The position numbers and the translations under genes are program-made. Shown here piece after piece: positions 61 through 56,513 of a DNA stretch of 64,000 nucleotides. Within the stretch, counting starts at the first letter, position 1. Every line of letters starts with the position of its first letter. Location: sequence record OQ223305.1; one strand, 5' to 3'. The notes under the pieces are model-generated. The model was not told the origin of the DNA, did not search any database, and saw only the letters and a list, made by a program, of their open reading frames with translations. The stretch comes from Escherichia phage EO1.

Positions 61-125
61 AGTTGTTTACAAGACTGTTCCTCTGTGGTACTATACAACT
101 ATCAACTACGGAGGAACAGAAAATG
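61..125 (+). repeat. 65-bp promoter cassette, copy 1 (copy 2 at 52673-52737)
   Basis: 60 of 65 positions identical between the copies; all 5 differences lie in one 8-bp block of the -10 region. Confidence 0.8.
65..96 (+). promoter_or_regulatory. early promoter cassette (-35 GTTTAC, -10 region GGTACTATAC) flanked by inverted repeat
   Basis: GTTTAC at 65-70; -10 region 87-96; inverted repeat CTGTTCCTC (75-83) / GAGGAACAG (111-119) brackets it. Confidence 0.65.
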
Positions 126-2016: not shown

Positions 2017-3036
2017 ATGAAAACTCGTTCTCAAATTGAAGATATGGTTCGTAATGCCAGCTATACCCGTAATGTTATGACATTTTTGTGCCAAAATAAT
2101 TTAGACCCTGATAGAGTTAATAGTTCCATTCACTTTAAGTATATGAATAGCAGTGAATGGTTACGTCATTTTAGTAAAGCGGGATATATTACACAAATGA
2201 CTGCTCGTGAGCAGCTCACCGATTTCTGTAAAACTATTGATTATAAAAATCCTCTATTTGTTCAAGGCGTTGGTCAGAGTAAGGTTGATTTATCAACAGG
2301 ATTTTTTAATCCAAATCATTATCGTATTGAATGGAGATTTATTGCTCTATTCCGTAAACAATTAAAGCAAATTTTGTCTACTGCTAGTCGATTAAAAGGT
2401 TCTGACATTAACTTAAAGAACCTGAAATTCGATGGTTATACTCTTCAGATGGAAGTAAGACCATTAAAAGAAAATAATAGAACTGCACGAATTAGCTTTA
2501 AACCTAATACAAAAAATTCTCTTTCAATTTGTGAATGCCTTAAATCACAGTTGACAGAAGCATTTAAGTATATGGATGTTGTTGCCGCTGTTCATTCTAA
2601 GATTTTACCTCATTTTGAGCGAAATTGGGAACATACAACAACGTATGAACTTGATATGATCGTTTCATTTAAATACGATTTTTTGAGAAAGGATGAAGTC
2701 CCGCAAGAGAAAAAGCAGGAAGTACAAGATAACTTAAATTTATCTAATTGCTCATCAAACTATCCTAAATTTTGGATGTATAGCTCAGGTAATGAGGATG
2801 CATGGAAATTCAATAAAGTGAATTTTCTTCCTGTTGAAAATCCGAGTCTTAAACCTGTTGAAAAATGGCACGCGGATGCGATTGAGAAGTCTCTTAAGGC
2901 AGTAGATGATGAACTCGTTAAAGCGACCAATGAAGTGCTAGAAGCTGAAAAGATGCTAGAAAAAGCACAAGAAAAAGTCAAAAATCTTACGAAGCAACGT
3001 TCTAAACTGAACAGTGCACTAAATGCACTGAACTAG
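2017..3036 (+). CDS. hypothetical protein, member 2 of coiled-coil-tailed ORF array (339 aa)
   Basis: ATG 2017 follows TAAGGA; C-terminus LVKATNEVLEAEKMLEKAQEKVKNLTKQRSKLNSALNALN is strongly heptad/charged. Confidence 0.6.
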   Translation: MKTRSQIEDMVRNASYTRNVMTFLCQNNLDPDRVNSSIHFKYMNSSEWLRHFSKAGYITQMTAREQLTDFCKTIDYKNPLFVQGVGQSKVDLSTGFFNPNHYRIEWRFIALFRKQLKQILSTASRLKGSDINLKNLKFDGYTLQMEVRPLKENNRTARISFKPNTKNSLSICECLKSQLTEAFKYMDVVAAVHSKILPHFERNWEHTTTYELDMIVSFKYDFLRKDEVPQEKKQEVQDNLNLSNCSSNYPKFWMYSSGNEDAWKFNKVNFLPVENPSLKPVEKWHADAIEKSLKAVDDELVKATNEVLEAEKMLEKAQEKVKNLTKQRSKLNSALNALN

Positions 3037-3065
3037 TTTACTTTGCCACAAGGATGTGGTATAAT
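3036..3065 (+). promoter_or_regulatory. early promoter cassette (GTTTAC, CCACAAGGATGTGG hairpin, TATAAT)
   Basis: GTTTAC 3036-3041, inverted repeat CCACA/TGTGG 3046-3059, TATAAT 3060-3065; 18-bp spacer; drives ORF at 3094. Confidence 0.65.
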
Positions 3066-3093: not shown

Positions 3094-4095
3094 ATGACTC
3101 GTAACGAATATATCAAATCATTCAATAGAGTTATTGATGATAAAGTTAAACCCATGTCTAGTCAGAACGCTGTTCTTTCTATTATCAATCAATGGCTCAG
3201 CAGTATTGATGCAAGTATTGTTTCTTCCAGTAAATTTATTCATGAAGTTCGTGAAATTTCTAGCCGTGTAGATAAAGATGATATTAAGATAATCTTTAAA
3301 GGGTCTCGTCTTCTTTCATATTTAGTTAATCGGGATATTCTTGGTAATTTTGGGAAAGAAATTAAACGAACCAAAGATGTAATAGGATACAATTGGTTCG
3401 GTGATGTTAATTCTTATCATCTTAATAATAAAGAAGACCCTGAGAATATTTTTACTCGTCGTTGGATTAGTAATTTCAGACTTTTTAAAGGACAAATTCT
3501 AAAATCAGCTTCTAAATTATGTTATGGCGATTATCGTCAAATTCATCCTTTGGCTTCTGATATGATTATCGTAAAAGAATATGAGCTTGATAAAAATAAA
3601 GTAGCTATTTTTGTGAATTACGAATTTTTTACACCAAACGCTAACCAAAAGAATATTAATAAATTTTTCTCAATTGCTAGCACTATAACTCATCAATTAG
3701 AGACGGCTTTGGATTGTATGGAAACTGTAAAAAGTATTCATACTTATCCTTTTAAGAATATGTGTGGTTGGGAAGGATACAAAATTGTAGTTAGTCTTCG
3801 TGAAGTGAAATGTGCTTATTCACCTACTGATAAAGAAATTTATCAACAAAAATGTGAGGAAATTGTGAATACTCCTAAAGAAGAAACTACCCTTGAGGAA
3901 CTAATGGAATGTCTTGATGATTCACCTGAACCGGTAGAAATTCGTCCAGAAGTTATTGCATTAGAAAAAGCTTATAAAGAAGTTCTAGAAATTTCTAATA
4001 AAGCGCAGAAAGAATACGAGCAGGCTAAAAAGATTTGGGAAGAATCTGTCAATCGCTTGGATCGTCTTGAACAAGCTTTACAGTTAATTAAGTAA
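3094..4095 (+). CDS. hypothetical protein, member 3 of coiled-coil-tailed ORF array (333 aa)
   Basis: ATG 3094 follows GAGGAG and its own promoter cassette (3036-3065); the six-frame start at 3043 is a TTG inside the promoter. C-terminal coiled coil (EKAYKEVLEISNKAQKEYEQAKKIWEESVNRLDRLEQALQLIK). Confidence 0.6.
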   Translation: MTRNEYIKSFNRVIDDKVKPMSSQNAVLSIINQWLSSIDASIVSSSKFIHEVREISSRVDKDDIKIIFKGSRLLSYLVNRDILGNFGKEIKRTKDVIGYNWFGDVNSYHLNNKEDPENIFTRRWISNFRLFKGQILKSASKLCYGDYRQIHPLASDMIIVKEYELDKNKVAIFVNYEFFTPNANQKNINKFFSIASTITHQLETALDCMETVKSIHTYPFKNMCGWEGYKIVVSLREVKCAYSPTDKEIYQQKCEEIVNTPKEETTLEELMECLDDSPEPVEIRPEVIALEKAYKEVLEISNKAQKEYEQAKKIWEESVNRLDRLEQALQLIK

Positions 4096-7811: not shown

Positions 7812-9625
7812 CAATTGAAAAAGAAATTGAAGGATTGATTCATAAAACTAATAAAGACCTTTTAAACGAGAATGCTAATAAAGATTCTCGTGTTTTTCCA
7901 ACTCAACGGGACCTTATGGCTGGTATTGTGTCTAAACACATTGCCAAAAATATGGTCCCGTCTTTTATTATGAAAGCGCATGAAAGCGGAATTATTCATT
8001 TCCACGATATTGATTATTCCCCTGCTCTTCCATTTACTAATTGTTGTTTAGTAGATTTAAAAGGAATGCTTGAGAACGGATTTAAGCTTGGTAATGCGCA
8101 GATTGAAACTCCTAAATCAATCGGTGTTGCTACTGCAATTATGGCACAAATTACTGCACAGGTTGCTTCCCATCAATATGGCGGAACGACTTTTGCGAAT
8201 GTAGATAAAGTACTTTCTCCTTATGTTAAACGCACCTATGCAAAACATATTGAAGATGCAGAAAAATGGCAAATCGCTGATGCGTTGAATTATGCTCAAT
8301 CTAAAACAGAAAAAGACGTATACGATGCATTCCAAGCTTATGAATATGAAGTAAATACTCTCTTTAGCTCAAACGGACAAACACCTTTTGTAACAATTAC
8401 ATTTGGTACAGGAACTGACTGGACTGAACGAATGATTCAGAAAGCAATTCTGAAAAATCGTATTAAAGGTCTTGGTCGTGATGGGATAACTCCTATTTTC
8501 CCTAAACTTGTTATGTTCGTTGAAGAAGGTGTTAATCTTTATAAAGACGACCCGAACTATGATATTAAGCAGCTTGCTTTAGAGTGCGCAAGCAAAAGAA
8601 TGTATCCTGACATCATTTCGGCTAAGAACAATAAAGCTATCACCGGCTCATCTATTCCTGTTTCTCCAATGGGTTGTCGTAGTTTCTTGAGCGTATGGAA
8701 AGATTCGACTGGCAATGAAATTCTTGATGGACGTAATAATCTCGGTGTTGTAACACTGAATCTTCCTCGTATCGCATTAGATTCTTATATTGGAACACAG
8801 TTCAATGAACAGAAATTTGTTGAATTATTCAATGAACGAATGGATTTATGTTTTGAAGCTTTGATGTGTAGAATTAGTTCCTTAAAAGGAGTTAAAGCGA
8901 CTGTTGCTCCTATTCTTTACCAAGAAGGTGCATTCGGGGTTCGTCTTAAACCTGATGACGATATAATTGAGTTATTTAAAAATGGCAGAAGTTCAGTGTC
9001 TCTAGGATACATTGGTATTCACGAATTAAATATTCTTGTCGGTCGTGATATTGGACAGGAAATTTTAACTAAAATGAATGCTCGTCTTAAACAGTGGACT
9101 GAAAGAACTGGGTTTGCTTTTAGCTTGTATTCTACTCCTGCTGAAAACCTTTGTTATCGCTTCTGTAAACTTGATACCGAAAAATATGGAAGTGTAAAGG
9201 ATGTTACCGATAAAGGTTGGTACACTAACAGTTTCCATGTTTCAGTAGAAGAAAATATTACTCCGTTTGAAAAGATTTCTCGCGAAGCACCATATCATTT
9301 CATTGCGACAGGTGGTCACATTTCTTATGTTGAACTTCCAGATATGAAAAATAACTTAAAAGGTCTTGAGGCTGTATGGGATTATGCTGCACAACATTTA
9401 GACTATTTTGGTGTTAATATGCCAGTAGATAAATGTTTTACATGTGGAAGTACCCATGAAATGACTCCTACTGAAAACGGATTTGTTTGTTCTATTTGTG
9501 GAGAAACTGATCCTAAAAAGATGAACACAATAAGAAGAACATGTGGTTATTTGGGAAATCCGAACGAACGCGGATTTAATCTCGGCAAAAATAAAGAAAT
9601 CATGCATAGGGTTAAACACCAATGA
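7808..9625 (+). CDS. nrdD: anaerobic ribonucleoside-triphosphate reductase NrdD (605 aa), uninterrupted
   Basis: 605 aa; C-terminal glycyl-radical region (RRTCGYLG) and Zn-ribbon cysteines (CFTCGS...CSICG); no intron or intron-encoded endonuclease ORF interrupts it. Confidence 0.9.
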   Translation: MTIEKEIEGLIHKTNKDLLNENANKDSRVFPTQRDLMAGIVSKHIAKNMVPSFIMKAHESGIIHFHDIDYSPALPFTNCCLVDLKGMLENGFKLGNAQIETPKSIGVATAIMAQITAQVASHQYGGTTFANVDKVLSPYVKRTYAKHIEDAEKWQIADALNYAQSKTEKDVYDAFQAYEYEVNTLFSSNGQTPFVTITFGTGTDWTERMIQKAILKNRIKGLGRDGITPIFPKLVMFVEEGVNLYKDDPNYDIKQLALECASKRMYPDIISAKNNKAITGSSIPVSPMGCRSFLSVWKDSTGNEILDGRNNLGVVTLNLPRIALDSYIGTQFNEQKFVELFNERMDLCFEALMCRISSLKGVKATVAPILYQEGAFGVRLKPDDDIIELFKNGRSSVSLGYIGIHELNILVGRDIGQEILTKMNARLKQWTERTGFAFSLYSTPAENLCYRFCKLDTEKYGSVKDVTDKGWYTNSFHVSVEENITPFEKISREAPYHFIATGGHISYVELPDMKNNLKGLEAVWDYAAQHLDYFGVNMPVDKCFTCGSTHEMTPTENGFVCSICGETDPKKMNTIRRTCGYLGNPNERGFNLGKNKEIMHRVKHQ

Positions 9626-10092
9626 ATTACGATAGATTTTATCCCTGTGATTTTGTGAATGGCCCTGGATGCAGGGTCGTTCTTTTCGTTACAGGTTGTT
9701 TGCATAAATGTGAAGGGTGTTATAATAAATCAACATGGAATGCTAGAAATGGTATTCCATTCACTGGAGAGACACTAGAGCAATTAATTGAATGTTTGAA
9801 TAATGATTATATAGAAGGATTAACTATAACTGGGGGTGACCCTCTTTATCCTGATAACAGAGACGTGATTCACTCTGTGGTTCAAACAGTAAAAAATCTT
9901 TATCCCAATAAAAGCATTTGGTTGTGGACAGGACATAAGTTTGAAGATATTAAACAACTAGAAATGCTTAAATATGTTGATGTTATTATTGATGGGAAGT
10001 ATGAAAAAAATCTTCCGACTAAAAAGCTGTGGCGAGGATCAGATAATCAGCGACTTTGGTCAAATACCGATGGGGTGTGGACACATGATTAA
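9622..10092 (+). CDS. nrdG: anaerobic RNR activating protein NrdG (radical SAM)
   Basis: 156 aa; cysteine cluster GCLHKCEGCYNK near the N-terminus; follows nrdD with overlapping stop/start. Confidence 0.85.
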   Translation: MNYDRFYPCDFVNGPGCRVVLFVTGCLHKCEGCYNKSTWNARNGIPFTGETLEQLIECLNNDYIEGLTITGGDPLYPDNRDVIHSVVQTVKNLYPNKSIWLWTGHKFEDIKQLEMLKYVDVIIDGKYEKNLPTKKLWRGSDNQRLWSNTDGVWTHD

Positions 10093-11798: not shown

Positions 11799-11999
11799 AT
11801 GAATCCTGAATCTAAATTATCGCAGCGAATTGCTGAAGCTCGTCGTCAGTTCTTTGAAAATATGATAGCACAAGGTATTGATGACGAAGTTTTTCTGAAC
11901 TGGTTTTGGAATCACAAATACTCAAAATGCTCAGGAGCAATATTAATATCAGCCGCAATGATGTACGAAGGCTGGAAGGGTGCCAAAAAGTTTAGCTAA
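11799..11999 (+). CDS. hypothetical protein (66 aa)
   Basis: ORF followed directly by the terminator at 12000-12017. Confidence 0.4.
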   Translation: MNPESKLSQRIAEARRQFFENMIAQGIDDEVFLNWFWNHKYSKCSGAILISAAMMYEGWKGAKKFS

Positions 12000-12017
12000 G
12001 GGCTTCGGCCCTTTTTT
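12000..12017 (+). terminator. rho-independent terminator (GGGCTTCGGCCC + T6)
   Basis: UUCG-tetraloop hairpin 12000-12011 followed by TTTTTT. Confidence 0.8.
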
Positions 12018-15639: not shown

Positions 15640-15656
15640 GGGCTTCGGCCCTTTAG
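15640..15656 (+). terminator. rho-independent terminator after alpha-gt
   Basis: GGGCTTCGGCCC 15640-15651 followed by TTT. Confidence 0.7.
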
Positions 15657-20946: not shown

Positions 20947-20950
20947 TAGA

Positions 20951-20965
20951 GGGCTTCGGCCCTTT
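20951..20965 (+). terminator. rho-independent terminator after gene 45
   Basis: GGGCTTCGGCCC 20951-20962 followed by TTT. Confidence 0.7.
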
Positions 20966-22896: not shown

Positions 22897-22916
22897 GGGG
22901 CTTCGGCCCCTTATTT
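22897..22916 (+). terminator. rho-independent terminator after regA
   Basis: GGGGCTTCGGCCCC 22897-22910 followed by TTATTT. Confidence 0.7.
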
Positions 22917-25701: not shown

Positions 25702-25783
25702 CATACAAGTAATATAAATCTATACTTATGAAAAACAGATGATTCTGGACATTTAGAATTCCCTAAAAAATTTTCACAAAACT

Positions 25784-25815
25784 GTTTACAAGAATGTTCT
25801 TCCATGGTACTATAC
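25784..25815 (+). promoter_or_regulatory. early promoter cassette with conserved 32-bp core
   Basis: GTTTAC 25784-25789; core GGTACTATACAACTATCAACTACTGATACGGA at 25806-25837. Confidence 0.65.
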
Positions 25816-25850
25816 AACTATCAACTACTGATACGGATTTGGATAATAAA

Positions 25851-26087
25851 ATGAAAATTGTTATGGGTTGCTTAGCAGTTTGTTTAGTTGCATTAGCAGC
25901 AGTTCCATTTGTTAGTGTTGAAAATGATACTCAACCTGTGATTGAATCTAGCACTGTTATTCACACTAATGGTAAAATATCAGTTAAAATTGATGATAAT
26001 CTTCATGTGAATACAAATGGATCTTTAGGTGTGCAAATGGGTAATACCTGCATAAGCACTACTGGAGTAATTACTACTTGCATTTGA
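25851..26087 (+). CDS. hypothetical secreted small protein (78 aa)
   Basis: ATG 25851 after promoter core and GGAT; N-terminal signal-like segment MKIVMGCLAVCLVALAAVPFVSV. Confidence 0.45.
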   Translation: MKIVMGCLAVCLVALAAVPFVSVENDTQPVIESSTVIHTNGKISVKIDDNLHVNTNGSLGVQMGNTCISTTGVITTCI

Positions 26088-44390: not shown

Positions 44391-44424
44391 AGTTTAAATT
44401 TTTTTTTTTCATAAAACTATATAC

Positions 44425-44467
44425 ATCAGTAGTTGATTATGGTACTATATCAATATCAACTACTGAT
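44425..44467 (+). promoter_or_regulatory. promoter-like stem-loop element: 13-bp perfect inverted repeat bracketing a -10 region
   Basis: ATCAGTAGTTGAT (44425-44437) and ATCAACTACTGAT (44455-44467) flank TATGGTACTATAT; variant of the 32-bp core; no GTTTAC -35. Confidence 0.5.
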
Positions 44468-44491
44468 ACAGAAAATAACTTGGAGAATAAA

Positions 44492-44761
44492 ATGGAAAAT
44501 TTAATTATCATCGAGCAATCTTTCAATGATTATGGTATGGCTTACGGTTATCGTGCGATAATGGAAGATTCTCGTGGATGTGTTATCGATATTGCTGAAT
44601 GTAAAGATTTACTGCAGCTTTTGAAGATTGTTCGCAAAAATTGGGATTGTGAAAACATTAAAGCTCGTGTTGTAACGGAAGAAGAAACTGTTTTTCATGA
44701 TGTAAAATTCGCCAAAGGTGCTGCTACTCTTCTGAAACGCATTGCTCCACTGTTCAATTAA
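44492..44761 (+). CDS. hypothetical protein (89 aa)
   Basis: ATG 44492 after TTGGAGAATAAA downstream of a promoter stem-loop. Confidence 0.4.
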   Translation: MENLIIIEQSFNDYGMAYGYRAIMEDSRGCVIDIAECKDLLQLLKIVRKNWDCENIKARVVTEEETVFHDVKFAKGAATLLKRIAPLFN

Positions 44762-46237: not shown

Positions 46238-46254
46238 AGGCCTTCGGGCCTTTA
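46238..46254 (+). terminator. rho-independent terminator upstream of gene 39
   Basis: AGGCCTTCGGGCCT 46238-46251 followed by TT. Confidence 0.6.
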
Positions 46255-46305: not shown

Positions 46306-48123
46306 ATGATTAAGAATGAAATTAAAATTCTGAGCGATATTGAACATATCAAAAAGCGTAGTGGCATGTACATTGGCTCTTCTGCTAATGAAATGCATGA
46401 GCGCTTTCTGTTTGGTAAATGGGAAAGTGTTCAGTATGTACCTGGTCTTGTTAAGCTTATTGATGAAATTATCGATAACTCAGTCGATGAAGGTATTCGT
46501 ACTAAGTTTAAATTCGCGAATAAAATTAATGTTACCATTAAAAATAATCAGGTAACAGTTGAAGATAACGGTCGTGGTATTCCACAAGCGATGGTTAAAA
46601 CACCTACCGGTGAAGAAATTCCTGGTCCAGTTGCTGCTTGGACTATTCCAAAAGCGGGTGGTAACTTTGGTGATGATAAAGAACGTGTCACCGGTGGTAT
46701 GAATGGTGTTGGTTCTAGTTTAACTAACATTTTTTCTGTGATGTTTGTCGGTGAAACTGGCGATGGTCAAAATAATATTGTAGTTCGTTGTTCAAATGGT
46801 ATGGAAAATAAATCCTGGGAAACTATTCCTGGAAAATGGAAAGGAACTCGTGTTACTTTCATTCCTGATTTTATGTCATTTGAAACTAATGAGCTGTCCC
46901 AGGTTTATCTTGACATTACACTGGATCGTCTCCAGACACTTGCTGTCGTTTATCCTGATATTCAATTTACCTTTAATGGTAAAAAGGTTCAGGGCAATTT
47001 TAAGAAATATGCACGACAGTATGATGAACATGCTATCGTTCAAGAACAAGAAAATTGTTCTATTGCGGTTGGTCGTTCACCGGATGGATTTCGTCAATTA
47101 ACTTACGTGAATAACATTCACACTAAGAATGGTGGTCATCACATTGATTGTGTTATGGATGATATTTGTGAAGACCTTATTCCACAAATCAAACGTAAAT
47201 TCAAAATTGATGTAACTAAAGCACGCGTTAAAGAATGTTTGACTATCGTTATGTTTGTTCGTGATATGAAAAACATGCGATTTGATTCTCAAACTAAAGA
47301 GCGTTTGACTTCTCCATTTGGCGAAATTCGTAGTCATATTCAACTTGATGCTAAAAAGATTTCACGCGCTATTCTAAATAATGAAGCAATTTTAATGCCG
47401 ATTATTGAAGCTGCGTTGGCTCGTAAATTGGCGGCAGAAAAAGCAGCAGAAACTAAAGCAGCTAAAAAGGCTTCTAAAGCTAAGGTTCATAAACATATCA
47501 AAGCGAATCTCTGTGGTAAAGATGCTGACACTACTCTTTTCTTGACTGAGGGTGATTCTGCTATCGGATATCTTATTGATGTTCGTGATAAAGAACTTCA
47601 TGGTGGTTATCCATTGCGTGGTAAAGTTCTCAACAGTTGGGGTATGTCATATGCTGATATGCTTAAAAACAAAGAACTATTTGATATTTGCGCAATCACT
47701 GGATTAGTTCTTGGTGAAAAAGCTGAAAACTTGAATTATCATAATATTGCTATTATGACCGATGCTGACCATGATGGTTTAGGAAGCATTTATCCTTCTC
47801 TGCTCGGATTTTTTAGTAATTGGCCAGAATTGTTTGAGCAAGGACGAATTCGCTTTGTCAAAACTCCTGTAATCATCGCTCAGGTCGGTAAAAAACAAGA
47901 ATGGTTTTATACAGTCGCTGAATATGAGAGTGCTAAAGATGCTCTACCTAAACATAGCATCCGTTATATTAAAGGACTTGGCTCTTTGGAAAAATCTGAA
48001 TATCGTGAGATGATTCAAAATCCAGTATATGATGTTGTTAAACTTCCTGAGAACTGGAAAGAGCTTTTTGAAATGCTCATGGGAGATAATGCTGACCTTC
48101 GTAAAGAATGGATGAGCCAGTAG
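46306..48123 (+). CDS. 39: DNA topoisomerase II large (ATPase) subunit gp39, uninterrupted 605-aa form
   Basis: GHKL ATPase motifs (IDNSVDEG, GRGIP) and TOPRIM region (LTEGDSA) in one ORF; 605 aa, i.e. not split into 39 + 60. Confidence 0.9.
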   Translation: MIKNEIKILSDIEHIKKRSGMYIGSSANEMHERFLFGKWESVQYVPGLVKLIDEIIDNSVDEGIRTKFKFANKINVTIKNNQVTVEDNGRGIPQAMVKTPTGEEIPGPVAAWTIPKAGGNFGDDKERVTGGMNGVGSSLTNIFSVMFVGETGDGQNNIVVRCSNGMENKSWETIPGKWKGTRVTFIPDFMSFETNELSQVYLDITLDRLQTLAVVYPDIQFTFNGKKVQGNFKKYARQYDEHAIVQEQENCSIAVGRSPDGFRQLTYVNNIHTKNGGHHIDCVMDDICEDLIPQIKRKFKIDVTKARVKECLTIVMFVRDMKNMRFDSQTKERLTSPFGEIRSHIQLDAKKISRAILNNEAILMPIIEAALARKLAAEKAAETKAAKKASKAKVHKHIKANLCGKDADTTLFLTEGDSAIGYLIDVRDKELHGGYPLRGKVLNSWGMSYADMLKNKELFDICAITGLVLGEKAENLNYHNIAIMTDADHDGLGSIYPSLLGFFSNWPELFEQGRIRFVKTPVIIAQVGKKQEWFYTVAEYESAKDALPKHSIRYIKGLGSLEKSEYREMIQNPVYDVVKLPENWKELFEMLMGDNADLRKEWMSQ

Positions 48124-48152
48124 TTTACTTTACCACAAGGATGTGGTATAAT
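48123..48152 (+). promoter_or_regulatory. early promoter cassette (second copy of the 3036-3065 type)
   Basis: GTTTAC 48123-48128, CCACAAGGATGTGG 48133-48146, TATAAT 48147-48152; differs from the 3034-3065 copy by one base. Confidence 0.65.
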
Positions 48153-50580: not shown

Positions 50581-51519
50581 ATGTACAATATTAAATGCCT
50601 GACCAAAAACGAACAAGCTGAAATTGTTAAACTGTATTCAAGCGGTAATTATACTCAGCAGGAATTGGCTGATTGGCAAGGTGTATCAGTTGATACAATC
50701 CGTCGTGTTTTGAAAAATGCTGAAGAAGCTAAACGCTCTAAAGTTACTATTAGCGGTGATATTACAGTTAAAGTTAATAGCGATGCAGTTATTGCTCCAG
50801 TTACTAAATCTGACATTATTTGGAATGCATCTAAAAAATTCATTTCGATTACTGTCGATGGTGTAACTTATAATGCAACACCTAATACTCATTCAAACTT
50901 TCAGGAAATTCTCAATCTGCTTGTAGCGGATAAGCTGGAAGAAGCGGCACAAAAAATTAATGTTCGTCGCGCTGTTGAAAAATATATTTCCGGCGATGTT
51001 CGAATTGAAGGTGGAAGCTTATTCTATCAAAATATTGAATTGCGGTCTGGTTTGGTTGATCGTATTCTTGATTCGATGGAAAAAGGCGAAAACTTTGAAT
51101 TTTATTTTCCGTTCTTGGAAAATCTGCTGGAAAACCCAAGCCAGAAAGCGGTATCTCGACTTTTTGATTTCTTGGTAGCAAACGATATTGAAATCACCGA
51201 AGATGGTTACTTCTATGCTTGGAAAGTAGTTCGTGACAACTACTTTGACTGTCACTCAAACACCTTTGATAACAGTCCGGGTAAAGTAGTTAAAATGCCG
51301 CGTACTCGTGTGAATGACGATGATACACAAACTTGTTCTCGTGGTCTGCATGTGTGTTCTAAATCTTATATTCGTCATTTTGGCAGTTCAACCAGCCGAG
51401 TTGTAAAAGTTAAAGTTCATCCTCGCGATGTAGTATCAATTCCGATTGATTACAACGACGCTAAAATGCGTACCTGCCAATACGAAGTAGTTGAAGACGT
51501 TACTGAACAATTTAAATAA
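50581..51519 (+). CDS. rIIB: rIIB protein (312 aa)
   Basis: 312 aa as T4 rIIB; follows rIIA. Confidence 0.85.
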   Translation: MYNIKCLTKNEQAEIVKLYSSGNYTQQELADWQGVSVDTIRRVLKNAEEAKRSKVTISGDITVKVNSDAVIAPVTKSDIIWNASKKFISITVDGVTYNATPNTHSNFQEILNLLVADKLEEAAQKINVRRAVEKYISGDVRIEGGSLFYQNIELRSGLVDRILDSMEKGENFEFYFPFLENLLENPSQKAVSRLFDFLVANDIEITEDGYFYAWKVVRDNYFDCHSNTFDNSPGKVVKMPRTRVNDDDTQTCSRGLHVCSKSYIRHFGSSTSRVVKVKVHPRDVVSIPIDYNDAKMRTCQYEVVEDVTEQFK

Positions 51520-51534
51520 GGGCTTCGGCCCTTA
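51520..51534 (+). terminator. terminator-like hairpin after rIIB
   Basis: GGGCTTCGGCCC 51520-51531; weak U-tract. Confidence 0.5.
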
Positions 51535-51742: not shown

Positions 51743-51747
51743 AATAA

Positions 51748-51763
51748 GGGCTTCGGCCCTTTT
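51748..51763 (+). terminator. rho-independent terminator
   Basis: GGGCTTCGGCCC 51748-51759 followed by TTTT. Confidence 0.7.
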
Positions 51764-51824: not shown

Positions 51825-52382
51825 ATGCAGAAAACGAATCCGGGGCTACAGAGACTATTTCAGATTCCGACATTTACCCTATCGAACAGTGACTTGACTA
51901 GTGAAATGAAAGTCAAAATTGCTGATACAGCAAGATACTCTTTAAAACAAAACCCGAACCAGGATAAGGCAGAAGTTATCGAAAGATGCCGTATCGCTGT
52001 GTACGCAGAGTTTTTTGTAGCAGATTGGTTAAGCGGGTATGTTAATAAAGGTCAAGAAGATGTCGATGATCCGTACACATATGCATGGGATGTATTGGCG
52101 CATCCAAAATACTGTGGGCTTCGTGTAGAAGTCAAAACACATCAAACTGACTCACGATGGATTTCGGTAACAACCGGATGCAGCGGAGAGTATCCATACG
52201 GTTCTGGAATAAATCTAGGGCCCATTCTGAATCACCAAGTCGCTGACTGTATAATTATATTCAACACTAAAGAAATTCACCCAGGTGTCATCCAGTACAC
52301 TCCGAAATTCATCGGTGATAGAGAAGACCTTCGTAAGGTTGTAAGAAAAAGCAACTACAACGGATGGTATCTTTCCATTTAA
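51825..52382 (+). CDS. denB: endonuclease IV DenB-like (185 aa)
   Basis: 185 aa and position next to rIIB match T4 denB; assignment by size and synteny. Confidence 0.55.
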   Translation: MQKTNPGLQRLFQIPTFTLSNSDLTSEMKVKIADTARYSLKQNPNQDKAEVIERCRIAVYAEFFVADWLSGYVNKGQEDVDDPYTYAWDVLAHPKYCGLRVEVKTHQTDSRWISVTTGCSGEYPYGSGINLGPILNHQVADCIIIFNTKEIHPGVIQYTPKFIGDREDLRKVVRKSNYNGWYLSI

Positions 52383-52397
52383 AAATTTCACAAAACA

Positions 52398-52451
52398 GTT
52401 TACATACCACAAGGACCGTGGTACTATACAACTATCAACTACTGATACAGA
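52398..52451 (+). promoter_or_regulatory. chimeric early promoter cassette
   Basis: GTTTAC 52398-52403, CCACAAGGACCGTGG 52407-52421 (second cassette type) fused to the 32-bp core at 52420-52451. Confidence 0.6.
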
Positions 52452-52570
52452 TTTGGAGAATAAAATGAAAATCGCTGAGATTGAACTATGAGTTCATTAT
52501 GGTGGTGTTTTGTTTGGTTAATTAGTATTCCAGTAATTTGTTTAACATTTACTTTTGTGATGAGGTTATT

Positions 52571-52669
52571 ATGAAAATTTTGAATTCTGTACTTATTGCT
52601 TGTGCGTGGTGGGTTGCGCAAGTTTCAGCAGTAGTAGTTGGTATTCACATTTATTACGAATATTTTTAA
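52571..52669 (+). CDS. hypothetical hydrophobic peptide (32 aa)
   Basis: ATG after GAGG; single hydrophobic helix. Confidence 0.25.
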   Translation: MKILNSVLIACAWWVAQVSAVVVGIHIYYEYF

Positions 52670-52672
52670 AAA

Positions 52673-52737
52673 AGTTGTTTACAAGACTGTTCCTCTGTGG
52701 TATTATTACCCTATCAACTACGGAGGAACAGAAAATG
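52673..52737 (+). repeat. 65-bp promoter cassette, copy 2
   Basis: AGTTGTTTACAAGACTGTTCCTCTGTGGTA[TTATTACC]CTATCAACTACGGAGGAACAGAAAATG, versus CTATACAA in copy 1. Confidence 0.8.
52677..52731 (+). promoter_or_regulatory. early promoter cassette, duplicate of the 61-125 element
   Basis: GTTTAC 52677-52682; inverted repeat CTGTTCCTC (52687-52695) / GAGGAACAG (52723-52731); -10 block GGTATTATTACC. Confidence 0.65.
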
Positions 52738-55749: not shown

Positions 55750-55754
55750 TTTTA

Positions 55755-55780
55755 GGGAGAGCCGAGGCTCTCCCTTTTTT
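55755..55780 (+). terminator. rho-independent terminator upstream of the motA promoter
   Basis: GGGAGAGCCGAGGCTCTCCC 55755-55774 followed by TTTTTT. Confidence 0.85.
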
Positions 55781-55806
55781 ATTTCAAAAATTTTTTTCAC
55801 AAAAAG

Positions 55807-55860
55807 GTTTACAACCAAAGCATACTGTGGTACTATACAACTATCAACTACTGATACAGA
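55807..55860 (+). promoter_or_regulatory. early promoter of motA with conserved 32-bp core
   Basis: GTTTAC 55807-55812; core GGTACTATACAACTATCAACTACTGATACAGA at 55829-55860. Confidence 0.65.
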
Positions 55861-55877
55861 ATTACGGAGATTAGAAA

Positions 55878-56513
55878 ATGTCTAAAGTAACTTACATCAT
55901 CAAAGCTTCTAACGATGTTCTGAATGAAAAAACTGCTGCGATTTTAATTACTATTGCTAAGAAAGATTTCATTACAGCCGCAGAAGTTCGTGAGGTGCAT
56001 CCAGATTTAGGTAACGCAGTAGTTAATAGTAATATTGGGGTATTGATTAAAAAAGGCCTGGTGGAGAAATCTGGTGATGGATTAATCATTACTGGTGAAG
56101 CTCAGGATATTATTTCAAATGCAGCAACTTTATATGCACAGGAAAATGCTCCGGAACTGCTGAAAAAACGAGCAACTCGTAAAGCTCGCGAGATTACTTC
56201 CGATATGGAAGAAGATAAAGACCTCATGTTAAAACTTTTAGATGAAAATGGATTTGTTCTTAAAAAGGTTGAAACTTATCGTAGTAATTATCTTGCTATT
56301 TTAGAAAAACGCACTTACGGAATTCGCAATTTTGAAATTAACAACAATGGAAACATGCGAATTTTTGGATACAAAATGATGGAACATCATATTCAGAAAT
56401 TTACTGATATCGGAATGTCTTGTAAAATCGCTAAAAACGGTAATGTGTATCTTGACATTAAACGTTCGGCAGAAAACATTGAAGCAGTAATCACTGTAGC
56501 ATCTGAACTGTGA
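55878..56513 (+). CDS. motA: middle-transcription activator MotA (211 aa)
   Basis: 211 aa; MSKVTYIIKASNDVLNEKTAAILITIAKKDFITAAEVREVHPDLGNAV matches T4 MotA as recalled. Confidence 0.85.
   Translation: MSKVTYIIKASNDVLNEKTAAILITIAKKDFITAAEVREVHPDLGNAVVNSNIGVLIKKGLVEKSGDGLIITGEAQDIISNAATLYAQENAPELLKKRATRKAREITSDMEEDKDLMLKLLDENGFVLKKVETYRSNYLAILEKRTYGIRNFEINNNGNMRIFGYKMMEHHIQKFTDIGMSCKIAKNGNVYLDIKRSAENIEAVITVASEL

Follow-up and report, generated by a model that had tools for sequence, protein, structure and literature searches.

Introduction

Early promoters of phage T4 have been described as 'uber' sigma-70 promoters, in which UP, -35, TGn and -10 elements are joined by extra conserved regions (Hinton 2010, PMC2988021), and their consensus was also given by Nolan et al. 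2006 (PMC1524935). The PeSL is a composite cassette of AT-rich tract, -35, -10, stem-loop, Shine-Dalgarno sequence and ATG (Arbiol et al. 2010, PMC2839356). Homologous recombination between PeSLs deletes, inserts or exchanges the ORFs that lie between them and gives rise to chimeric PeSLs, with crossovers mapped between the -10 and the ATG (PMC2839356). In the T4/PST pair, PeSLs have the consensus TTTACW-N17-TAYWAT and an exchange of ndd.4/.5 is observed (Comeau et al. 2014, PMC4122927). Repeats of ~70 bp that hold a T4 early promoter and may form a stem-loop are described as flanking the internal-protein genes (Repoila et al. 1994, as reported in PMC2839356 and PMC4122927). In a further arrangement, seen at the T4 genes e, soc, 49 and I-TevI, a hairpin sequestering the ribosome-binding site is combined with an internal late promoter (PMC3014915).

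Here we analyse a repeated promoter element in a stretch of 64,000 nucleotides of Escherichia phage EO1 (the window). Its copies resemble T4 early promoters in the GTTTAC -35, the TGn, the TAnnnT -10, the A-rich UP tract and the place and orientation before early genes. The T4 consensus, as quoted in PMC2988021 and PMC1524935, ends at the start site, while the subfamily found here also shares +1 to +18. Like PeSLs, the cassettes are composite repeats among small non-essential early genes, beside indels or replacements between close relatives, with stem-loops between or over promoter boxes and with chimeric forms, which we infer from sequence. In contrast to PeSLs, not every cassette has a strong stem-loop of its own: those with a partial or variant copy of the element do, the three with an exact copy do not. 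Mini-circles are a feature of PeSLs, whereas the window cassettes are known from sequence alone. The PeSLs of RB49/phi1 are not sequence homologues of the window cassettes. As far as they are described in the two later papers, the ~70-bp repeats belong to the same phage group and are the same kind of repeat but lie at other loci. T4 cassettes upstream of ipI, ipII and trna.4 (73939, 65413, 73572) share TACTAT, (C)TATCAA(C/A) and an inverted repeat across the -10.

Copies of the element in the window

A search of the 64-kb window with the 32-nt pattern GGTACTATACAACTATCAACTACTGATACRGA, allowing up to three mismatches, returns four sites; the chance expectation from 100 dinucleotide-preserving shuffles is 0. 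Three of them are exact copies of GGTACTATACAACTATCAACTACTGATAC(A/G)GA, at 25806-25837 (with G at position 30), 52420-52451 and 55829-55860, and the fourth is a three-mismatch variant at 44441-44472. The first 23 nt of the 32-mer recur as a partial copy, GGTACTATACAACTATCAACTAC, at 87-109. All five had been listed in the preliminary description, which also rightly placed the 55829 copy before motA (ORF 55878-56513). The three types of upstream sequence that it distinguished are likewise present, as AAGAATGTTCTTCCATGG at 25790, CCACAAGGACCGTGG at 52407 and CTGTTCCTC...GAGGAACAG at 75-119. A sixth relative, absent from that list, is found at 52699-52731 (TGG TATTAT TACCCTATCAACTACGGAGGAACAG). 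It has TATTATTACCC in place of TACTATACAAC, and its CTATCAACTACGGAGGAACAG is the same as in the 87-109 copy.

An independent repeat finder gives these cassettes as the two largest families of dispersed direct repeats in the window (71 and 67 nt, five copies each). All copies are oriented with early transcription and placed exactly at gene starts. The early genes follow each other on the + strand in the order nrdC.x ... 43, imm, 42 ... motB, cef, 39, rIIA, rIIB, denB, ndd, 52, motA. Identity of this extent is not a property of most early promoters, and mosaic junctions are present (see below): among the 17 early-type promoters of the window, the 32-mer is full in three, variant in one and partial in two, and the other strong early promoters are mostly followed by unrelated sequence downstream of the -10. 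The coordinates of all cassettes are collected in Table 1.

Table 1. Early promoter cassettes in the window of phage EO1 and sites of the element in T4; promoter boxes and start sites are predictions.
Genome	Feature	Position	Strand	Parts or form
EO1	Early promoter cassette downstream of gene 43	25763-25853	+	UP-like 25763-25783; -35 GTTTAC 25784-25789; spacer 25790-25804; TGG 25805-25807; -10 TACTAT 25808-25813; predicted start A 25820; 32-mer 25806-25837; ATG 25851 of a 78-aa ORF absent from T4
EO1	Early promoter cassette at the ndd.6 locus	52381-52491	+	UP-like 52381-52397; -35 52398-52403; CCAC..GTGG mini-hairpin in spacer 52407-52421; -10 52422-52427; predicted start A 52434; 32-mer 52420-52451; RegB/S1-type Shine-Dalgarno GGAGAATAAAA 52455-52465; uORF of 8 codons 52465-52491, overlapping the ndd.6 ATG (52488) by ATGA
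EO1	motA early promoter cassette	55754-55880	+	Terminator hairpin 55754-55775 plus T-run; UP-like 55786-55806; -35 55807-55812; -10 55831-55836; predicted start A 55843; 32-mer 55829-55860; GGAG 55866-55869; motA ATG 55878
EO1	Variant cassette between motB and cef	44403-44494	+	Degenerate -35 TATACA 44420-44425; -10 TACTAT 44443-44448; variant 32-mer 44441-44472; GGAGAATAAAA 44482-44492; ATG 44492; 13-bp inverted repeat flanking the -10, arms 44425-44437 and 44455-44467
EO1	nrdC.8-type cassette	61-125	+	-35 65-70; -10 89-94; partial element 87-109; ATG 123; 15-bp inverted repeat, arms 75-89 and 105-119
EO1	ndd.5-type cassette, sister of the 61-125 cassette	52673-52737	+	-35 52677-52682; spacer identical to that of the sister; -10 TATTAT 52701-52706; TACCC block instead of ACAAC; CTATCAACTAC 52711-52721; ATG 52735; hairpin arms 52687-52701 and 52717-52731
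EO1	Early promoter with the CCACAAGGATGTGG spacer module seen at 52398 (family D6)	3036-3065	+	Module joined to TATAAT -10 and an unrelated leader
EO1	Second promoter with the CCACAAGGATGTGG spacer module	48123-48152	+	Module joined to TATAAT and another leader
T4	Upstream of ndd.6	167064	early	Full
T4	motA	163651	early	Full
T4	imm.1	27058	early	Full
T4	e.8 (locus outside the window)	70674	early	Full
T4	Between motB and cef	6608	early	Three-mismatch variant
T4	nrdC.8	53921	early	23-nt partial
T4	nrdC.10	55384 (-35 GTTTAC; element ~22 nt downstream)	early	3-nt deletion form

Anatomy of the cassettes

The 32-mer is the -10 box, the predicted start site and the first 18 bases of the predicted transcript of near-identical early promoters. 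Its bases 1-2 complete a TGG, bases 3-8 form the -10, and base 15, an A located 7 nt past the -10, is the predicted start. With this start, bases 15-32 would be +1 to +18 of the transcript, so that the conservation first noticed beyond the -10 reaches ~18 nt into the predicted leader. GTTTAC is found 18 nt before the -10, corresponding to TTTACA-17 bp-TACTAT with TG ahead, except for the degenerate -35 TATACA at 44420; this copy is also the exception among the six to the TAnnnT -10 at 17-bp spacing from a GTTTAC-like -35. A TGG stands directly ahead of the -10 in all copies, as in an extended -10. Ahead of the -35, a UP-like TTTTCA(C/T)AAAA(C) is located at 25772, 52386, 55795 and 44407 (repeat family D3). 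Downstream, every copy is followed within 30-50 nt by a start codon with a Shine-Dalgarno sequence, and the composite layout of AT-rich tract, -35, -10, Shine-Dalgarno and ATG is present in the repeated cassettes. Judging from these features and from the orthology to T4 early promoters, the cassettes probably act as promoters.

Segment-by-segment comparison of the three exact copies reveals an uneven likeness. They agree at 17-22 of the 30 nt upstream of the -35, at all six positions of the -35, at only 3-6 of the first 15 nt of the spacer, at 9/9 positions of TGG and -10 and at 23-24 of the 24 positions from -6 to +18. Over the 20 nt past +18, the 25806 and 52420 copies share 19 positions, and either shares 6-7 with motA. 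Taken as a pair, the cassette downstream of gene 43 (imm1up) and the ndd.6 cassette match at 22/30 in UP, 3/15 in the spacer, 9/9 in TGG and -10, 23/24 from -6 to +18 and 19/20 in the next 20 nt. The nrdC.8-type and ndd.5-type cassettes have the same spacer (15/15) but match at only 20/24 from -6 to +18. Because the exact copies have the UP-like TTTTCACAAAAC tract and the GTTTAC -35 in common, and only the ~15-nt spacer and the distal leader differ, the repeat unit is, on this comparison, the whole cassette of ~90-100 bp, variable in a patch of the spacer and in the distal leader, and not a free-standing 32-mer. The idea that each copy is joined to a different upstream half holds for the spacer but not for UP and -35.

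Two spacer families can be distinguished. One, CCACAAGGA(T/CC)GTGG, is located at 3036, 48123 and 52398. The other, AAGACTGTTCCTCTGTGG, is located at 65 and 52677, and the 25784 spacer is related to it (11/15).

Orthologous sites in T4 and other phages

The window belongs to Tequatrovirus (T4-like), of which hundreds of genomes match at 95-99%; Escherichia phage PE37 matches the window with 100% identity around 25-27 kb, and phage ECP52 with 99.4% identity at 51.5-57 kb. The T4 reference genome was searched in full for the element (Table 1). The window copies are 95-100% identical to the T4 sites upstream of imm.1, ndd.6, motA, nrdC.8 and cef, and since the same element occupies orthologous T4 sites, they are orthologues of T4 promoters. 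In particular, imm1up is orthologous to the T4 imm.1 promoter and has further orthologs in five IMG/VR contigs. About 6 of the ~30 T4 early promoters carry the element, and CTATCAAC around the start site is found in ~12/28 of them. In GenBank, 506 phage records, all of them T4-like coliphage relatives, contain one to four exact copies each. The element is absent from outgroup genera where they have the orthologues of the motA and gene-43 sites. A usable T4 start-site map was not found in the literature searched.

Comparison of orthologs gives 0/216 changes in the -35 and 10/324 in TGn/-10; the ungapped mismatch profile is skewed by 1-nt shifts of A/T tracts and by 3-nt indels, and only these two figures are reliable. 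The stretch from +9 to +18 is the least stable part of the 32-mer at orthologous loci, with 3-nt indels and block replacement, which makes strong selection on the 32-mer as a whole less likely and favours recent copying as the cause of the agreement among the window copies there.

Mosaic blocks and probable copying between loci

The cassettes are mosaics of blocks, as had been proposed. In one triplet the 25784 cassette was taken as child of two parents, the ndd.5-type and the ndd.6-type cassette. Here the spacer holds a run of ten informative sites that all follow one parent, while 24/24 downstream and 12/14 upstream informative sites follow the other. A longest-run permutation test gives p<1e-5 for this spacer block, p = 0.007-0.014 for the ndd.6 cassette and 0.04-0.10 for the -10 block of nrdC.8; the triplets were picked after inspection of the data, and only p<1e-5 survives correction for the ~2000 possible triplets. 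A single-breakpoint recombination test (p = 0.02-1) was replaced by the longest-run test because the mosaics are internal blocks, for which a single breakpoint is the wrong model. To be noted, part of the clustering of differences could also come from constraint that varies along the promoter, strict at the RNA polymerase contacts and relaxed in the spacer.

Copying is indicated between the T4 imm.1 and ndd.6 cassettes, which are identical but for one mismatch over 57 nt, from TGG through ATGAAAATCGCT, the first four imm.1 codons. In this way, Shine-Dalgarno sequence and start codon are included in the identity between two copies. The imm.1 codons at the ndd.6 locus open a mini-ORF of 8 codons (MKIAEIEL; 52465-52491), whose stop overlaps the ndd.6 start. 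Identity through four imm.1 codons is inexplicable by promoter function, which argues for copying rather than promoter design.

Blocks are also swapped at orthologous loci. The ndd.5 promoter has TATTATTACCC in the window, TACTATTACCC in T4 and in the related sequences L007, L008 and L011, and TACTATACAAC in L009, with identical flanks. The 5' part of the spacer at the 25784 locus is AAGA(A/C)T or the e.8-type ATCCC(C/T) among close relatives, and the ndd.6-locus cassette of L009 has a different leader (CAGCTACGGAGGAG). In one lineage of RB69-like outgroup contigs, the cassette downstream of gene 43 and a cassette ~3.3 kb upstream of motA share ~60 nt (ATCCATGGA(A/C)GGATGTGT-TACTAT-TACCTCATCAAAA...); in another RB69-like lineage the same two loci share a different spacer, ATCCACATGGAAGTGG. 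Genome-wide concerted evolution was also considered for the 3-nt deletion variant CAACTGATAC, which in one genome is carried by both L007 and L031. The pattern is contradicted by contig 3300010279, where the deletion is present at the ndd.6 locus but not in imm1up, which is full length. Slippage at ACTACT makes independent recurrence likely, so the deletion is not counted as evidence.

The motA promoter and gene-content junctions

A MotA 100% identical to that of the window is preceded in some sequences by the 32-mer cassette and in others by an unrelated cassette together with an additional ORF of 75 aa. In the alternative arrangement, the order is motA.1, terminator hairpin, a 32-mer-type cassette without -35, the 75-aa ORF, the unrelated cassette and motA. 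The cassette directly before motA then reads GTTTAC-TTCTGCTTTAAACATGA-TACTAT-AGACCTATCAAATAAATG.... In GenBank, ~351 records have the arrangement of the window and T4 and ~138 have the alternative one. More distant relatives, with MotA 67-69% and 51-52% identical, share the spacer GCTT(T/C)AAAC of the alternative cassette, and the 51-52% group has AGACCTATCAAA following the -10 in common with it as well. As the alternative cassette is common to the outgroups, the 32-mer at motA is derived.

The downstream gene varies among close relatives behind each of the three exact copies. Besides the motA case, a 78-aa ORF (25851-26087) is found in the window where T4 and the related sequence L032 run straight into imm.1. 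At the ndd.6 locus, the mini-ORF and ndd.6 in the window and T4 stand against an ORF starting MKFKFYYAK in L007, L008, L009 and L011. Between the window and T4 there are ~17 homology breaks, of which only two are located at cassettes (25864 and 44501); both are 8-10-nt microhomologies at ATGNAAAAT and not exchanges of full cassettes. The other breaks are mostly indels of homing endonucleases or introns (T4 I-TevII, mobC, mobB, segF). An enrichment of breaks at cassettes was considered and dropped, as two of ~17 is not significant genome-wide, and cassette-mediated exchange is thus a minor contributor in this comparison.

Leader RNA

Folding of the shared leader had been proposed as a check in the preliminary description. 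The own-promoter leaders of all copies do not fold beyond shuffled sequences (-2.6 to -5.3 kcal/mol, z -0.3 to +0.25), and the read-through RNA of the three exact copies has no significant structure either (z +1.7, -0.7, +0.5). Strong read-through helices are limited to the partial and variant copies: 75-89/105-119 (-30.2 kcal/mol, z -4.77), 52687-52701/52717-52731 (-24.9 kcal/mol, z -3.54) and 44425-44437/44455-44467 (-23.4 kcal/mol, z -4.35). Stem-loops at the exact copies are confined to the upstream terminator hairpin at motA and a CCAC/GTGG pairing of 4-6 bp at 52398, with none significant at 25784. The whole window has no match to an Rfam covariance model at the gathering score.

The helices of the 61-125 and 52673-52737 cassettes cover a GGAGG Shine-Dalgarno sequence with the 3' arm, and their 5' arm lies upstream of the predicted start, so only read-through RNA would be blocked. 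This arrangement is like that of T4 e, soc, 49 and I-TevI, except that the internal promoter is early (sigma-70) and not late (gp55) and that the exact 32-mer copies are without a helix. Such helices were read as attenuators by the authors of the PeSL work.

The endoribonuclease RegB with S1 targets single-stranded GGAGAAUAAAA, with the consensus GGAGRAYARAA (PMC1702504). This motif is found at the Shine-Dalgarno sequence just outside the 32-mer in unstructured leaders and is a predicted cleavage site. In particular, GGAGAATAAAA begins 3 nt past the 52420 element and 9 nt past the 44441 element; the 25806 copy has GGATAATAAAA 3 nt downstream, and the motA copy has GGAGATTAGAA. A start-site consensus of the NAD-capping type and a complementarity of the leader to 16S rRNA were dropped as candidates, as the sequence fits neither.

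Discussion

We consider it probable that these are dispersed T4-type early promoter and 5'-UTR cassettes, which are kept alike by selection together with ectopic recombination and serve as joints for gene swaps. Each cassette would comprise a UP-like tract, a GTTTAC -35, a 17-bp spacer, TGn, a TACTAT -10 and a start ~7 nt further on, followed by a G-poor unstructured leader, a GGAG(AAUAAAA) Shine-Dalgarno sequence doubling as RegB/S1 site, and the ATG. Unmodified host sigma-70 RNA polymerase would drive immediate-early transcription of the gene behind each copy. Purifying selection would hold the parts that the polymerase reads, i.e. UP, -35, TGn/-10 and the start-site region, while ectopic homologous recombination or gene conversion would copy blocks between cassettes and generate the mosaics. 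The cassettes may then be the joints where the phage acquires, loses or replaces small early genes, by the PeSL mechanism (Arbiol 2010; Comeau 2014). We infer this recombination mechanism, and likewise the share of the identity that each of the two forces would account for.

Rather unlikely is an explanation by function alone, in which every base of the 32-mer is needed for an exceptionally strong promoter or for a CA-rich leader recruiting S1 and the ribosome. TGn/-10, discriminator and initial transcribed sequence would be tuned for promoter escape, and similar sequences would be kept or reached independently, with no copying. In extent, the conserved -14 to +18 together with the shared UP and -35 roughly equals the footprint of RNA polymerase in the open complex, with the uncontacted spacer left free. 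The near-invariance of -35 and TGn/-10 among orthologs points the same way, as do the unstructured own-promoter leaders, expected for efficient initiation, and the wide occurrence of CTATCAAC at T4 early start sites. However, function does not account for identity that reaches over a start codon and into an unrelated gene for four codons, nor for multi-base blocks that flip states at one locus between identical flanks. Furthermore, the variation of +9 to +18 at orthologous loci speaks against a tight constraint, and most other strong early promoters of the genome are unrelated downstream of the -10.

The part from -6 to +18 (ACAACTATCAACTACTGATACAGA), which sigma-70 does not need, could be a cis-element of its own, spread by recombination as a functional module, although we give this only a small chance. 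It might be an operator or leader motif for a phage factor by which some of the immediate-early promoters are shut off or tuned, or it might be an initial-transcribed or S1-binding sequence which sets promoter escape and translation. Slightly less probable still is that -6 to +18 marks a regulon, as DNA operator or RNA leader motif of a co-regulating factor possibly involved in early shut-off. Reviews describe the shut-off of early promoters as not understood (PMC3014915, PMC2988021), and a subset of promoters does share sequence beyond the needs of sigma-70. Yet the genes behind the copies are a mixed set (motA, imm.1, small ndd.x membrane peptides, e.8, nrdC.8/.10), the shut-off is general to early promoters while the element is confined to a minority of them, and an unrelated cassette replaces the motA promoter in ~1/4 of the relatives with identical MotA. 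The exact copies are also without dyad symmetry, significant RNA structure or Rfam match. The dispersed, near-identical and short copies could further recall a MITE-like mobile element or a duplication artefact of assembly, but this is hardly credible: neither terminal inverted repeats nor target duplications are present, all copies are oriented with early transcription and lie exactly at gene starts, and hundreds of genomes, sequenced independently, have the same copies at these loci. A homing-endonuclease target is ruled out by orientation, position and this recurrence.

Recombining promoter cassettes are thus the reading that we prefer. That such cassettes are both promoters and recombination joints is already known, as the PeSL or early-promoter-repeat model has been published for T4-type phages; the exchangeable modules of the preliminary description are borne out as mosaicism, but they are not new. 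Earlier work may not have pointed out the 32-mer subfamily, the derived origin of the T4-type motA promoter or the trace of imm.1 codons ahead of ndd.6. The current understanding of T4 biology is unchanged, and the specifics would not surprise a T4 specialist. Annotators should expect near-identical promoter and 5'-UTR repeats at early gene starts, and remnants like the 8-codon uORF before ndd.6. Short-read assemblies may mis-join at these repeats. For the phages themselves, the promoter of motA, the master activator of the middle genes, is dimorphic among otherwise near-identical genomes, and regulation is coupled to genome plasticity, as one cassette of ~100 bp would join immediate strong expression of a new gene with enough homology for the phage's own recombination to swap, delete or insert genes at gene boundaries.

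Promoter modules and hairpins

The two 15-bp helices (see the table below), in the nrdC.8-type and ndd.5-type regions, give computed folds of -30.2 kcal/mol (z -4.8) at 75-119 and -24.9 kcal/mol (z -3.5) at 52687-52731. Both are predicted to mask the Shine-Dalgarno (GGAGG), but in read-through RNA alone. They form the early-promoter counterpart of the arrangement at T4 e, soc, 49 and I-TevI, in which an RBS-sequestering hairpin holds an internal late promoter. The perfect inverted repeat of the motB-cef cassette, a variant copy of the early promoter/5'-UTR repeat, is kept in T4, and the cassette has a degenerate -35 (TATACA).

The spacer module is found at three window promoters, among which the -10 and the leader differ. 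It is also observed in RB69-like outgroup contigs, at the promoter downstream of gene 43 (L040-L042, L048 and L051, about 3760-3790). A family of terminator-like UUCG hairpins is scattered across the early region. These hairpins contain a GGGC...GCCC motif, to which deletion endpoints were tied by Mosig et al. 1998, as cited in PMC2839356.

The motA promoter comes in two forms in Tequatroviruses whose MotA is identical (window 55754-55880; L007 9602-10003, in Yersinia phage ZN18-type genomes). The cassette with the 32-mer, which spans the -10 to +18, stands immediately 5' of motA in about 351 GenBank records, while an extra 75-aa ORF with an alternative, outgroup-like promoter is present in about 138. 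The spacer of the alternative promoter includes TGCTTTA, which is MotA-box-like but wrongly spaced.

Features in the window
Feature	Position	Details
15-bp helix	75-119 and 52687-52731	arms CUGUUCCUCUGUGGU / ACUACGGAGGAACAG; covers -10 and start site
Perfect inverted repeat, 13 bp	44425-44437 / 44455-44467	arms ATCAGTAGTTGAT / ATCAACTACTGAT; either side of motB-cef cassette -10
Spacer module CCACAAGGATGTGG	3042-3059, 48129-48146, 52404-52421	4-bp mini-hairpin, TGn at its end
(A)GGGCTTCGGCCC(T) hairpins	about 11999-12013, 15640-15655, 20950-20964, 22897-22911, 46239-46254, 51519-51533, 51747-51761	UUCG tetraloop
uORF, 8 codons (MKIAEIEL)	52465-52491	begins at the cassette's ATG
ndd.6	52488-52574	start overlapped by uORF stop, in ATGA
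89-aa ORF	44492-44761	3' of variant cassette; intact
78-aa ORF	25851-26087	between cassette and imm.1; N-terminus signal-peptide-like (MKIVMGCLAVCLVALAA...)
Segments missing vs T4	8343/8346, 9622-9642, 14420/14445, 34967/35110	about 1.0, 0.6, 0.86, 0.66 kb

Reading frames behind the cassettes and large indels

The first 12 nt of the uORF are identical to the T4 imm.1 start, and the uORF therefore looks like what a copied imm.1 cassette has left behind. Its translation may be coupled to that of ndd.6. At the site of the 89-aa ORF, T4 has lost some 200 bp between ATGGAAAATT and ATGTAAAATT, which leaves an 11-codon out-of-frame remnant (T4 6556-6521). The 78-aa ORF has both its limits marked by ATGAAAAT repeats and is found neither in T4 nor in the relative contig L032.

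The four T4 segments missing from the window match I-TevII (of the nrdD intron), mobC, mobB and segF. Homing-endonuclease content explains most of the large indels between the window and T4.
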